53,354 bases of DNA from a virus (lineage: Duplodnaviria > Caudoviricetes): positions 1 to 53,354 of IMG/VR virus record IMGVR_UViG_3300022752_000098, one strand, 5' to 3'. Below, one piece after another: positions 16,979-24,390 of the stretch. The notes under the pieces were generated by a model. The model saw nothing but the letters and a program-made list of their open reading frames with translations, was not told the origin of the DNA and ran no database searches. Both the position numbers and the translations under genes were made by a program. How positions within the stretch are numbered: the stretch's first letter is position 1; each line of letters starts with the position of its first letter.

Positions 16979-18186
16979 TGGCTGAATCACAAAAACCAAT
17001 GGCGTTTCTTGAAACTCTTGATAAGACGCAAGAAAAATTTGCAGATGAGATTATTGAAAAGTCTAAAATGAAAGGCATGGATCCTCGCCTTAGTTTGGCT
17101 TTGGTCTATCGAGAGAGCAAGTTTGATCCCAACGCTGTAGGTGGAGTTGGTGAGATTGGTCTTTTTCAAGTCAAGCCTTCTACTGGCAAGTTGATGGGTT
17201 ATTCGGAAAAAGATCTTAGAAATCCTTCCAAAAACATTGATGCTGGGTTGCAGTATTTAAACCAGAACTTGATCAAGTTCAATGATCCAGTGCTGGCTGT
17301 GGCTGGGTACAACGCAGGCCCTGACCACCCGTACTTTGCAGACCCCAAGATTCCTTTGCCTGAGAGCACGGTTAATTACGTCAGAGACATCAAAGATCTT
17401 GGTGGGTTTACTGAGACACCTAAAGAAGACACATCACCTCCTCCCCCTCCTCCTTCAGAGCCTGCGTCAGAGGATGACCTGCGCAAGCAAAAAGCCGCCA
17501 TGATTGGTGGGTTAGGTGGGTTTGGTGCGGGTGCGGCTCAGACGATGTTTGGTGGTGGTGGGCAAGGTGGTGTGACGACGAACGCGCAGACCCCCGGCGG
17601 GCGCTACGCCGCCAAGACTGGTTACGGCATAGGAGAAGGCTCCACCAAAGAGGTTATAGATCGCTACAAGAGGTTTGCGCCACAACCCTTGGGTGAGCAG
17701 ATGTTGGCTGATCCTAAGAAGAGCTCCATGGGGGCAGGCCCTCGGAGCTTGCAGGTGGTGCCCGGGACTGTTGCGCCGCTCTCCATCAACAGACAGGTTC
17801 CTACTCCACCTCCAACTCCCACGCTTCAAAACATACGTCAAGGCGCGCAGGCTATGGGGAATGTGATGGGGAGGATCCCCGTGGTGCCCGGAGTCCTTGG
17901 CGGAGCCACCACAGGCTACCAAGGTCAGGAAGCATTTGATCGTTACCAAAAGGGTGACATGACAGGAGCTACCATCGCTGGTATGGGCGCTCTAGGAGGG
18001 CTTGCATCAATGGTTCCTCACCCAGCTACCAGAGCACTCGGTGCTCTGGTAGCTACGGTCTCTCCTGCCGCTCTAGCGGTGCTTGACAAGATGCGTACAA
18101 TGAACCAACAACCCAAGGTTCCTGCATCGCCTGAAGAATTACAGAATGCAAAAAATCCTGCTTTCATGTATCCTAGCATCCGTTGA
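16978..18186 (+). CDS. Virion-associated lytic transglycosylase (SLT domain) ejection protein
   Basis: RESKFDPNA (catalytic Glu), GEIGLFQV, NIDAGLQYL, AVAGYNAG, TVNYV. Confidence 0.85.
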   Translation: MAESQKPMAFLETLDKTQEKFADEIIEKSKMKGMDPRLSLALVYRESKFDPNAVGGVGEIGLFQVKPSTGKLMGYSEKDLRNPSKNIDAGLQYLNQNLIKFNDPVLAVAGYNAGPDHPYFADPKIPLPESTVNYVRDIKDLGGFTETPKEDTSPPPPPPSEPASEDDLRKQKAAMIGGLGGFGAGAAQTMFGGGGQGGVTTNAQTPGGRYAAKTGYGIGEGSTKEVIDRYKRFAPQPLGEQMLADPKKSSMGAGPRSLQVVPGTVAPLSINRQVPTPPPTPTLQNIRQGAQAMGNVMGRIPVVPGVLGGATTGYQGQEAFDRYQKGDMTGATIAGMGALGGLASMVPHPATRALGALVATVSPAALAVLDKMRTMNQQPKVPASPEELQNAKNPAFMYPSIR

Positions 18187-22570: not shown

Positions 22571-22785
22571 AAATCCAATGCAAAAAGGGTTGTGAAGATA
22601 GCGAACAAGAAGACCATGTACGCAACCCAGCCATAGACACGGCGCTCTGAGAACTCAGGCTCAATGCCAAGCAGAGCCATCTGAATGCGTTCAGCATCAG
22701 CGCTCATGTAGTTTTTGGGGGGAGGGCTGTACATACAGCCAATGCGAAGACCAGACTTGGTCGTGAGGGGAAGGTGTTTTTCCAT
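22567..22785 (-). CDS. First gene of the leftward early operon; C-terminal TM
   Basis: GGAG RBS before ATG 22785; TTKSGLRIGCMY.PP motif. Confidence 0.6.
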   Translation of the reverse strand: MEKHLPLTTKSGLRIGCMYSPPPKNYMSADAERIQMALLGIEPEFSERRVYGWVAYMVFLFAIFTTLFALDL

Positions 22786-22820
22786 TTGATTCTCCATAAC
22801 CGCCGTATCGGCGTGCACGA

Positions 22821-22850
22821 ATCTTAACACGATGTTAAAAACCATTGCAA
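22821..22850 (-). promoter_or_regulatory. Leftward early promoter with overlapping TTAAC-N5-GTTAA palindrome
   Basis: Minus strand TTGCAA-18 nt-TAAGAT with extended -10 TG; palindrome at 22824-22838. Confidence 0.6.
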
Positions 22851-22874
22851 CACAATCCTGAGTAAGTTGTGGGG

Positions 22875-22903
22875 TTTCTTTTAATTCAAAGTTAATGTAT
22901 ACT
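22875..22903 (+). promoter_or_regulatory. Rightward promoter with operator-like TTAAT-N5-GTTAA
   Basis: -10 TATACT at 22898-22903, weak -35; predicted start ~22909-22910 coincides with the first RNA stem. Confidence 0.5.
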
Positions 22904-22908
22904 CTGCC

Positions 22909-23284
22909 GCGTTGGTGGTGTATTGGGTTAGCGCCGATACAGACTTAACCGTCGGACGAAACGCTTAAAAGCACACTGCTTTATGTGAGCCACCAACGCC
23001 AACACGCATGGGGATTGACTCGGCAACCAAGGTAGGCGTGGGCTGGAACGATAAGCCCGTTACCACGCACAGTCCCCAGCCGTGTTGATGGATGCATACA
23101 TCAATCGTCTTGGACACGCAGACGTTAACGTGAGGTGGATCTCGGTGGAATCCCGAGAGCTAACATGCATGGGGATTGTCCTCTGGGGGTTCCCGGAGGC
23201 CCGGAACAGTCCCCAGCCGTGTTGGCGAACTGTAGTGGAGTGCAACCCCTCATAGTTGTATCTAAAACACGCTGATCGCCAACA
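22909..23284 (+). ncRNA. Array of structured RNA elements in the cro leader
   Basis: 10-bp stem 22909-22918/22990-22999; two cassettes AACA(C/T)GCATGGGGATTG...ACAGTCCCCAGCCGTGTTG (23000-23087, 23159-23226); further hairpins; no credible CDS. Confidence 0.7.
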
Positions 23285-23300
23285 AACAATTAAGGACACG

Positions 23301-23504
23301 ATGACATTGCGGGAGTATTTTGAGTCGGAGCCGTTGGGCGCACGTGGTGAGATGGCTAAGTATTTGGGCATTAGCCTGACATGGATGTCGCTGTTAATCC
23401 ATGAGCGTAGAACTGCGTCTGCCGCTTTGGCGGTAAAGATTGAGAAAGCAACTCAAGGGCTGGTCACAAGAAAAGACTTGCGTCCAGATTTGTTTTTCGT
23501 GTAA
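23301..23504 (+). CDS. Cro/YdaS-like HTH regulator
   Basis: MAKYLGISLTWMS; IEKATQGLVTRKDLRPDL; AAGGA RBS. Confidence 0.8.
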   Translation: MTLREYFESEPLGARGEMAKYLGISLTWMSLLIHERRTASAALAVKIEKATQGLVTRKDLRPDLFFV

Positions 23505-23512
23505 CATAGTTT

Positions 23513-23607
23513 GAAACACGGCTAGGTTTGGGGTAGCTCCCCTTACCGAAAAGCGTCCCATCCCCGCCTGCCGCAGTTTCTTTAGGGATGTGAATTTTGG
23601 GATCGGT
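23513..23607 (+). promoter_or_regulatory. Structured 5' leader of the replication initiator gene
   Basis: GAAAC..CGGCTAGG / CCTGCCG..GTTTC outer stem, GGGG-TAGCT-CCCC inner hairpin, CATCCC complementary to downstream GGGATG. Confidence 0.55.
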
Positions 23608-24390
23608 ATGCACTACTATCAATTCAACATTGGTGACTATGCAAGTCACACCCGCCACCTCGATATGTACGAGGATTTGGCTTATCGTCGTTTGCTCGAC
23701 ATGTACTATCTTCACGAACGCCCGTTGAACGCCGATTCAACGGCTGTTGCCAAGCAAATTGGTATGCGGGAGAAGGTTCAAGTTGTTCAGGATGTCTTAA
23801 ATGAGTTTTTCCAACTTGGTGATGAGGGTTGGGTAAATGATCGTGCGGACAAAGAAATTAAGCATTTTCACTCAAAAATTGAGCAAGCTTCACGCGCCGG
23901 CAAAGCATCTGCTGAACGCAGGAGTAACGCCCGTTCAACGGACGTTCAACCAACCAATAAACAAGAACCAAGAACCAATAACCAAGAACCAAGTTTTACA
24001 GTATCTAAAGATACTGTTCGTCCGCCAGAAGGCGAACCAGAGGAAAAACCGAATCCCAAGTTACCCGGTTGTGATCACAAAGGTGTGTTGGCTCTTTACC
24101 ACTCTACTTTGCCAAACCTTCCTGTTATCGAGATTTGGAACGAGACCCGTGCTGGTTACTTAAGACAAAGATGGCGAGAGGTTGCGCTGGACTTATCCAA
24201 GGATGGCCCAGTTACCCATGCTGACATCATGGCTTGGTGGAAAACATTCTTCGAGCACATCAAGGGCTCAAAGTTCCTGACTGGACGAACACAGAGCAAA
24301 GACAAGCCGCCGTTCTTGGCTGACCTAGAGTGGGTCATCAAGCCAACCAACTTCGCAAAAATAATTGAAGGCAAATATCACAGGGATTGA
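23608..24390 (+). CDS. Replication initiator, YdaU/DUF1376 family
   Basis: MHYYQFNIGDY..HT.HL...EDLAYRRLLDMYY; C-terminal ADLEWVIKPTNFAKIIEGKY. Confidence 0.85.
   Translation: MHYYQFNIGDYASHTRHLDMYEDLAYRRLLDMYYLHERPLNADSTAVAKQIGMREKVQVVQDVLNEFFQLGDEGWVNDRADKEIKHFHSKIEQASRAGKASAERRSNARSTDVQPTNKQEPRTNNQEPSFTVSKDTVRPPEGEPEEKPNPKLPGCDHKGVLALYHSTLPNLPVIEIWNETRAGYLRQRWREVALDLSKDGPVTHADIMAWWKTFFEHIKGSKFLTGRTQSKDKPPFLADLEWVIKPTNFAKIIEGKYHRD
23914..23993. repeat. Putative replication origin iterons inside the initiator gene
   Basis: AACG recurring at 11-nt spacing (CGTTCAAC twice) then AACCAA(G/T) 7-mers; lambdoid origins lie in the initiator linker. Confidence 0.5.

Follow-up and report, generated by a model that had tools for sequence, protein, structure and literature searches.

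Several kinds of small structured RNA and of repeated element, from phages and from bacteria, offer points of comparison for the locus described here. The C4 and CI RNAs combine a constant closing helix with variable internal parts, and the transfer RNA (tRNA) cluster of phage T4 includes the species 1 and species 2 RNAs, stable RNAs of unknown function. In arrays of attC sites, each site consists of an outer 7-base-pair (bp) box with AAC/GTT and an inner box, separated by unpaired bases, and of a terminal structure that varies, and the 3' external transcribed spacer of an E. coli tRNA operon is a by-product of a tRNA precursor that sponges small RNAs. Bacterial ribonuclease P (RNase P) has been described as cleaving hairpin-like phage RNAs, i.e., phi80 M3, P4 CI and P1/P7 C4 (PMC5499578). 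GOLLD and ROOL RNAs have been found near tRNAs in prophages (PMC5737381), recombination between short conserved PeSL cassettes has been reported to shuffle modules in T4-type phages (PMC2839356), and the Rsr-binding motif of the bacterial Y RNA YrlA has been given as GNCGAAN0-1G, with the gene for Ro60/Rsr (TROVE) no more than about 4 kb away (PMC4201824). Here we describe an element found in the IMG/VR virus record IMGVR_UViG_3300022752_000098, which was analysed in its entirety (53,354 bases, rated 95% complete; "the window" from here on). Two units, each made of the same pair of complementary flanks around an unrelated insert (the cargo), lie one after the other in the leader of a cro-like gene, and they belong to a large family in which one helix closes very different inserts. 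We think it quite possible, if still short of probable, that the units would be small RNAs cut from a polycistronic transcript, the stem acting as a handle and the cargo as the effector.

The two units of the window share a 3' flank, ACAGTCCCCAGCCGTGTTG, present as identical copies of 19 nucleotides (nt) at 23069-23087 and 23206-23224, and a 5' flank whose copies (22998-23017 and 23159-23178) are 90% identical over 20 nt, so that the pair of repeated flanks read by the first-pass annotation was borne out. The arms of both units are complementary and enclose 52 nt in unit 1 and 28 nt in unit 2. At the base of each unit there is a 7-bp outer helix (CAACACG/CGUGUUG), a 2x2 internal loop (C.C, A.G) and a 9-bp inner helix (UGGGGAUUG/CAGUCCCCA), which is G-rich and includes a U.G pair; the insert folds separately. 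Folding has thus confirmed the architecture first proposed, a long helix with the same CA/GC loop around unrelated inserts of ~52 and ~28 nt. The predicted fold of unit 2 had -44.3 kcal/mol on the + strand (z score -5.69, equalled by none of 200 shuffles) against -30.3 on the - strand, and its outer helix can be extended to 23159/23226. Unit 1 gave -38.0 kcal/mol on the + strand (z -2.93, again equalled by none of 200 shuffles). The module that precedes it, M0 (Table 1), gave -35.6 kcal/mol (z -3.09), with arms at 22909-22918 and 22990-22999 that are 100% complementary, and the spacer at 23088-23160 folded no better than its shuffles (z +0.59). The cargo of unit 1 belongs to a family with three sources in the pooled set described below (the window and contigs L035 and L093), that of unit 2 to the commonest family of all (at least 29 sources). 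The leader of contig L014, which is syntenic with the window, holds an identical copy of the latter cargo in another position.

The size and diversity of the family were estimated with three scans of viral contigs: one with the exact 19-mer of the 3' flank, one in which only the outer helix and loop were fixed and one in which only the inner helix was fixed. Each scan started from a part of the consensus, which biases the figures for diversity, and the pooled counts are estimates; totals from the outer-helix and inner-helix scans are lower bounds or refer to the matches listed. The exact 19-mer was present in 102 other viral contigs, a recurrence that chance cannot explain. In nearly all of them the matching 5' flank was present as well, its distance varying, and the inserts in between were of many kinds, which is what the first-pass annotation had proposed to look for. 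The outer-helix scan returned at least 116 distinct units with at least 49 versions of the inner helix. In 47 of the 49, seven or eight of the eight positions were paired, and many of the changes were compensatory, often on both strands. The inner-helix scan returned at least 132 distinct units, in which, among the matches listed, the 3' loop was GC in 117, the 3' outer strand CGTGTTG in 114 and the next three bases GTG in 82. Pooled under strict conditions, the scans gave at least 331 units in at least 265 sources, comprising at least 282 distinct units and at least 259 distinct cargos (24-106 nt). These cargos fall into ~136 families among the matches listed (73 of them in a single source). 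The inner helix that closes them has at least 70 versions, of which nearly all keep their pairing, and a contig holds between one and four units among the matches listed. The commonest cargo family of the first scan included ten variants with a hairpin that visibly covaries in the alignment. No conserved bases were detected at the cargo junctions beyond the helix, save an A before the 3' flank that was partly forced by the search pattern. The idea of a reusable scaffold with swappable cargo is therefore strongly supported, by ~136 cargo families behind the same covarying helix and by one clean cargo replacement (see below).

As to the nature of the cargo, resemblance to tRNA was considered as a general rule and rejected, with only 5 of 277 cargos containing a hairpin like a T-arm. 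In three cargo families, nevertheless, the 3' flank is directly preceded by a canonical T-arm, with a stem of 5 bp and a TTCGANN loop (L055, 2320-2428, - strand; L078, 70-178, + strand; L008, 1639-1778, + strand), and one of them also has a hairpin like an anticodon arm. In these cargos the constant helix stands where the acceptor stem of a tRNA would be.

Covariation indicates that the helix is maintained as such. In an alignment of 25 units with short cargos 96.3% of the cells pair, and for six of the 16 pairs (expected, 1.3) both partners were seen to change, a number reached by none of 500 shuffles; when the partners were slid by 1-3 columns pairing fell to 37-47%. The outer helix has compensatory versions as well, for example CCAUACG/CGUAUGG and CCAAACG/CGUUUGG. 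Of the 25 units 24 retain the U.G pair, whose counterpart on the opposite strand would be a mismatched C.A. All of the 18 tRNA genes within 500 nt of a unit are on the strand of the unit, and in 206 of 246 sources the longest open reading frame (ORF) found downstream has the direction of the unit, as has the longest one upstream in 153 of 231. The conserved U.G, the orientation of the tRNAs and the co-directional ORFs lead us to the conclusion that it is a single strand of the element, in the + sense, that is read, RNA being the simplest possibility.

The clearest case of exchange was found between contigs L025 and L067, which are nearly identical over 78 nt upstream of the unit, including a predicted promoter, and over ~190 nt downstream, and carry unrelated cargos of 50 and 26 nt. 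The break points are located exactly at the constant helix, and a third contig, L021, has the same upstream sequence followed by a third cargo. In L014, syntenic with the window, the backbone is the same, but the modules on it are not the same in kind or in order: a tRNA-like module with a terminal CCA comes first, followed by the cargo of unit 2 and then by M0. Since the cargo of L025 and L067 was replaced exactly at the constant helix, its two strands behave as short homology arms at the DNA level. Such exchange is also what would be expected if the units were recombination sites of the DNA, folded like attC or acting as homology linkers in the manner of PeSL, with the RNA incidental. Near-palindromic inverted repeats alternate along the island, the cargo changes exactly at the repeats, the layout resembles that of attC, and unit 1 folds as well on the - strand. 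Besides, recombination of short cassettes has been described as shuffling the modules of T4-type phages (PMC2839356). We nevertheless regard recombination sites as an unlikely explanation. The constant U.G would become C.A on the other strand, the orientation to tRNAs (18 of 18) and to downstream genes is fixed, units butt precisely on tRNA ends, and they are present in contigs from RNA libraries. Neither a tyrosine integrase in the record nor a recombinase among the shared neighbour genes was found. An integron attC site in the strict sense was rejected: the boxes (CACCAAC/GTTGGTG or CAACACG/CGTGTTG) misfit the attC consensus (RYYYAAC/GTTRRRY), there was no PF00589 match in the record, and the segments between units measure 40-115 nt, too short for genes. 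Exchange driven by homology is, moreover, compatible with a role of the units as RNA and forms part of it.

The units are components of larger RNA islands. A tRNA gene was found in no more than 16 of the 205 sources, yet of the 19 units present there 18 have a tRNA at a distance of 500 nt or less. Contig L048 has tRNA-Met, a single base, the unit and tRNA-Thr in this order, and the last five bases of the unit are at the same time the first five of tRNA-Thr. A comparable continuity was found with modules of a second type (type B). We defined a junction 7-mer as the last 4 nt of the unit plus the next 3 nt (usually GTTGGTG), and its exact reverse complement was present 20-200 nt downstream in 142 of 311 distinct contexts (median 86 nt) against 10 of 311 in each of two controls. 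Of the 128 contexts with a non-consensus 7-mer, 25 contained the complement of that 7-mer and 6 the complement of the consensus; for the units with junction GTTGGCG, CGCCAAC was found in the same interval in seven of eight contexts. Because junction 7-mers find their own complement well above controls, about half of the units run, with a 4-nt overlap, into a tRNA-sized type B module closed by an acceptor-like GUUGGUG/CACCAAC helix. There are 135 distinct type B modules with 74 interior families, and 21 contain GTTCGA or GTTCAA (all among the matches listed). Modules like M0 are present in 40 of 205 sources, always on the strand of the unit, and 35 of 41 abut a unit; their first hairpin covaries. 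M0 was not called as tRNA by ARAGORN and had no match in Rfam. In the window its last base is 22999, 1 nt before unit 1. At the other end of the island, the 5' strand of the second type B module shares the last 4 nt of unit 2, its predicted fold pairs GCGA with UCGC, and its 3' end is 17 nt before the cro-like start codon. The whole cro leader of the window (22909-23283) is thus a chain of RNA modules, the leader of a cro/replication operon.

Some other structures were seen in islands of this kind. A full-length Betaproteobacteria-1 RNA (RF02932, 101.5 bits) is located in L075 (5765-5882, - strand), ~280 nt downstream of a unit and M0 on the same strand; it fits a betaproteobacterial host and suggests that such islands hold more RNA genes. 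In L022 (6178-6281, + strand) an Rfam tRNA call spans 104 nt, ~30 nt over the normal size, starting at the last bases of the unit; ARAGORN made no call there, and it may be a tRNA with an insertion. The small conserved hairpin GACACCCCGGAAAGACGGGG, found directly upstream of units in unrelated contexts (L042, L054, L085, L086 and a contig of sequencing run X18), may be another island module. Around the islands of L025, L067 and L021 there is a long-range helix in which GUUGUUG, at the predicted transcription start, pairs with CAACAAC ~100-400 nt downstream, before the next gene. The sequence CCAACAAC, which precedes many units (44 of 262), equals the 3' strand of such a long-range helix or of a tRNA-like module.

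Of 215 upstream contexts, 14 had a well-placed promoter resembling those of sigma-70, with the unit at the predicted +1, and the two controls gave 1 and 5; an own promoter was rejected as a general rule. With a promoter at the start of the unit in so few contexts, most units are probably embedded in longer transcripts and a few would be free-standing genes, as far as promoter sequences can tell. Contigs assembled from RNA libraries of three studies hold related sequence, either units or M0 together with the beginning of unit 1: one of run X18 has a near-identical unit 1 in a different context, one of X17 has M0 plus unit 2, and one of X16 has the flanks around another cargo. They are only a hint of transcription. 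This embedding in transcripts is what gives substance to the view that the units are structured spacers or leaders acting in cis, i.e., that they insulate folding, guide the processing of the tRNA-like modules or protect the 5' end of the messenger RNA, with a cargo that is largely filler. Units stand within operon leaders or between tRNA-like modules, spaced by 0-3 nt or overlapping by 4-5 nt, rarely have their own promoter, precede a co-directional gene in most sources, and no target of the cargo was found. Filler, however, is not expected to recur as conserved folded families, of which the commonest extends over at least 29 sources and a covarying hairpin is kept through ten variants; the sequence conservation of the helix and the C.C/A.G loop across hundreds of unrelated contexts would be left unexplained; and some units lie directly at a predicted transcription start, as free-standing genes do. 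We therefore see a role purely as cis spacers as conceivable and rather doubtful.

No protein accompanies the units consistently. The commonest neighbour is the large terminase subunit (30 of 101 loci, ~0.4 kb downstream of the unit), followed by an HNH-like protein (17 loci), the small terminase subunit (16) and a DUF1376 replication protein (15). All-versus-all clustering of 3,319 six-frame ORFs from 101 sources yielded no family in more than 30 sources as a conserved partner, and no RNA-binding or RNA-processing protein was detected among the 20 window ORFs scanned with PHROG and Pfam. A partner encoded by the host is also what a put-like RNA would need. According to this alternative the constant helix would, like put of HK022, bind and modify RNA polymerase for processive antitermination, in keeping with units that begin at a predicted transcription start and precede co-directional operons, including those of cro/replication and terminase. 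It seems to us highly improbable: there are up to four units per contig among the matches listed, units are also found between tRNAs, most have no nearby promoter, and nothing in such a mechanism suggests the need for a hypervariable cargo.

The position of the units in the leader of the cro/replication operon brings to mind antisense RNAs that confer immunity, like P4 CI and P1 C4, an analogy already drawn in the first-pass annotation. RNase P would cut them from the leader, and the specificity of immunity would depend on pairing between their variable loops and sites in that early operon. The layout resembles that of C4 and CI. The cargo of unit 1 has a perfect 10-nt complement in the replication gene (23679-23688), and the 3' flank is complementary at 11 of 12 positions to 23515-23526, the 5' strand of a structured motif upstream of that gene. 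RNase P is also described as processing CI and C4 (PMC5499578). Nonetheless, the longest cargo complements in the window are of 10 nt each, and 92 and 73 of 100 shuffles did as well; complementarity in L035, L093, L014 and L097 was likewise at chance (9-10 nt, with 24 to 92 of 100 shuffles as good across all five), so that the suggested search for complementarity gave only chance values against the phages' own genomes. The 10-nt match is not kept in two other contigs with the same cargo. The site at 23515 is part of a separate recurrent motif, and its complementarity to the flank was treated as coincidence or shared helix vocabulary because L073, the sole contig with a changed site, has no matching change in its units. 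No C4 match appeared in 22700-23700 even at expectation values (E) up to 10, nor at the gathering score in the window. Neither an integrase nor an S24 repressor domain was found in the record and a lysogenic immunity system is not evident, and many units lie ~0.4 kb upstream of terminase (30 of 101 loci) or in tRNA arrays instead of a control region. The analogy with the RNA-based control of P4 and P1 is not supported, and we hold antisense immunity to be quite improbable.

Returning to the reading of the units as processed small RNAs, the following sequence of events can be envisaged. The islands would be transcribed as polycistronic precursors, from which the enzymes that process tRNA in the host would release discrete, stable RNAs. 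Cleavage by RNase P at the 5' end of every acceptor-like type B module would also set the 3' ends of the units, and 3' trimming or another endonuclease would act elsewhere in the chain. The constant helix with its C.C/A.G loop would be a handle for processing, for stability or for a conserved host factor, which would be encoded by the host since no phage protein travels with the units. The same helix, as DNA, would also be a pair of short homology arms for cargo exchange. The role of effector would fall to the cargo. Given that its complementarity to the genome of its own phage does not exceed chance, it would more probably serve as a structured ligand or decoy of host factors than act by antisense pairing. 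That processing releases the units is plausible, as units abut tRNAs and RNase P is described as acting on phage hairpin RNAs (PMC5499578); for RNase III in particular, the enzyme first suggested, there is no specific support. A more ambitious version, speculative and on balance doubtful, is that freshwater phages carry a hypervariable array of RNA cassettes in which two alternating closing helices (CAACACG...CGUGUUG and GUUGGUG...CACCAAC) would form a universal frame for processing or loading, read by a conserved host protein or ribozyme, with recombination-swapped cargos as decoys or ligands for host factors such as RNA-targeting defences or tRNA-directed enzymes. If true, the array would be the RNA counterpart of an integron or of CRISPR-style modularity.

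Several observations weigh against small RNAs released from a precursor. The acceptor-like helix of the following type B module or tRNA competes with the outer helix of the unit for the same 4-5 nt, and a cut by RNase P there would remove most of the 3' strand of the outer helix, so that the handle may exist only in the precursor. The weaker distal outer pairs that this competition predicts before a type B module were not seen (means of 3.68 versus 3.69 of 4 pairs). The 3' outer strand is far more conserved (CGTGTTG in 114 of 132) than its 5' partner, whose commonest version accounts for ~29%, and this excess hints at a role beyond pairing. Unit 1 folds as well on the - strand (-40.2 kcal/mol) as on the +, and folding energy alone therefore cannot fix the strand. 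The evidence from RNA libraries consists of assembled contigs and not of end-mapped reads, and cannot show transcription, strand or ends. Units embedded in longer transcripts could act purely in cis. Finally, the looser pooled set (355 units) held at least one evident false positive, in a window gene at 17019-17118.

The element appears in no catalogue that was searched. Rfam 15 gave no match to units or cargos at the gathering score (in the window and at 15 loci) or at permissive E (22700-23700 and six loci), with a tmRNA/tRNA-clan match of E 0.26 on the T-arm of the L055 cargo as the sole weak exception; the proposed Rfam scan has thus returned no described motif. ARAGORN found no tRNA in the window and no RF00005 match overlapped any unit. 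The 3' flank, which may resemble part of E. coli 6S RNA, was not matched by the Rfam 6S model. A keyword search found no published description, the motif catalogues of earlier surveys being covered only through Rfam. In species-representative genomes (one for each of 185,579 species) the exact 19-mer had no match. The gapped pattern had 11, of which three were real units, all on contigs of 1.8-2.3 kb from metagenome-assembled genomes (MAGs), two of them binned as Burkholderiales. To judge from these genome searches, the element is apparently restricted to phages, the three short MAG contigs apart. The false gapped matches were heptamer repeats of Nostoc or coding sequence. In the heptamer repeats, which stand in tandem in genomes of heterocystous cyanobacteria (Nostoc and Mojavia; L105, L110, L112, L113, L115), the words GGGGATTG and CAGTCCCC of the inner helix recur, giving chance matches to the gapped pattern that have no relation to the phage element. 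REP/REPIN elements, which are scattered in many copies over a bacterial chromosome, were rejected, given the absence of exact matches in species-representative genomes, the three real gapped matches on short MAG contigs and the 1-4 units per contig. Self-cleaving ribozymes, TIGR or CRISPR arrays and retron RNAs were considered and dropped, there being no core motifs, direct repeats, reverse transcriptase or Rfam match.

The features of the locus are listed in Table 1. The island does lie between a leftward ORF and the cro-like gene, as the first reading had placed it; the divergent early promoters that it assumed found no such backing, the consensus scan having called no + strand promoter before the island. 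Past the YdaS/Cro-like gene come a DUF1376 replication gene and RusA, a lambdoid early layout despite the lack of a match to a tyrosine integrase (PF00589) or to an S24 (CI/LexA-type) peptidase domain in the 95%-complete record. No named phage record resembling the region was found by blastn in distant mode. The window stretch was found in DNA sequencing runs labelled freshwater, lake or aquatic, four of which may be its own source, and its habitat is given by that label only.

Table 1. Features of the RNA island of the window and of its immediate surroundings (positions are those of the window).
Feature	Position	Strand	Remarks
Leftward ORF, 92 amino acids	22567-22845	-	Divergent from cro; no family match; hydrophobic C-terminus
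Possible -10 hexamer TATACT of a rightward early promoter	22898-22903	+	Putative, read by eye; same hexamer at the same place in syntenic contig L014
Type B module M0	22909-22999	+	Cloverleaf-shaped, tRNA-sized; closed by 10-bp helix GCGUUGGUGG/CCACCAACGC
Unit 1 (type A)	23000-23087	+	5' flank 23000-23017, 52-nt cargo 23018-23069, 3' flank 23070-23087
Spacer with small hairpins	23088-23160	+	Weakly structured; conserved upstream of the unit in contig L075
Unit 2 (type A)	23161-23224	+	5' flank 23161-23178, 28-nt cargo 23179-23206, 3' flank 23207-23224
Second type B module	23221-23283	+	Closed by GUUGGCGA (23221-23228) pairing with UCGCCAAC (23276-23283)
cro-like helix-turn-helix gene (YdaS family)	23301-23504	+	Pfam PF15943, E 2.4e-12; PHROG 35, transcriptional repressor; first gene past the RNA island

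Directly upstream of the DUF1376 gene there is another structured motif (23514-23590, + strand), made of the blocks AACACGGCUAG, a hairpin, CCGAAAAG, CCUGCCG and GUUUCUUU. At 23515-23590 it matches the Rfam family int-alpA (RF02996) over the full length of the model with 23.8 bits, below the gathering threshold of 35.8 (E 0.021). Its first 12 nt are matched at 16 places, and 11 of these have the same conserved blocks as well (the window and contigs L009, L014, L019, L022, L031, L036, L044, L053, L073 and L096).

If the units are processed functional RNAs, phages would carry and exchange many small structured RNAs behind a single stem, a new layer of the phage-host relationship and a new modular element. 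The conserved helix would then be a ready bait for the host factor that reads it, and the cargo families a catalogue of candidate RNA effectors. The natural design, i.e., a constant closing helix, an arbitrary insert and release by host enzymes, could also serve as a scaffold for RNA expression in bacteria. Even if the units act only in cis, hundreds of environmental phage genomes have a recurrent RNA island that had not been annotated, here in the leader of the early operon.

In comparison with known systems, the closest include P4 CI, P1/P7 C4 and phi80 M3, likewise described as small phage RNAs whose ends form a closing helix around variable internal parts and which are cut from longer transcripts, CI and C4 from an operon leader (PMC5499578). 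In our units, however, the sequence of the closing helix is conserved over hundreds of contigs and the interior is replaced wholesale instead of being varied only at the loops, and there is neither a match to the C4 model, nor complementarity of loops to a target above chance, nor a lysogeny module in the record. Like the T4 species 1 and 2 RNAs, GOLLD and ROOL, the units are borne by phages beside tRNA genes with which they are probably co-transcribed. GOLLD and ROOL differ in size (500-800 nt against 60-140 nt), the units have no Rfam match, and one helix with unrelated inserts is peculiar to the units. The tRNA-operon spacer RNAs are single host loci that act by base pairing, whereas the units have a conserved helix, hypervariable structured inserts and no pairing target found. 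Bacterial Y RNA also has a closing stem built from its two ends and a variable module able to mimic tRNA, as the few cargos with a T-arm-like hairpin might, but in the units the tRNA-like part is in normal and not in permuted order. Y RNA (YrlA/YrlB) was rejected, the Rsr-binding motif being absent from the 5' flank, with no TROVE/Ro60 match in the record and no Rfam match. With attC the units share the general layout, and unlike attC they are tightly linked to tRNA ends and to the direction of transcription, and are located in phages and not in integrons. PeSL cassettes are similar in that short conserved motifs flank variable content in phage genomes (PMC2839356). They are described as a promoter and a terminator around ORFs, whereas the flanks of the units are the two strands of one covarying helix around 24-106 nt of structured non-coding sequence; a promoter was seen at the start of a unit in only 14 of 215 contexts, and no terminator was called beside the window units. 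The element failed every membership test that was run. It joins one conserved and covarying closing helix to more than 100 structured inserts unrelated to each other, alternates with another closing helix and is apparently restricted to phages, a combination that was found neither in Rfam nor by the keyword search and is apparently new.

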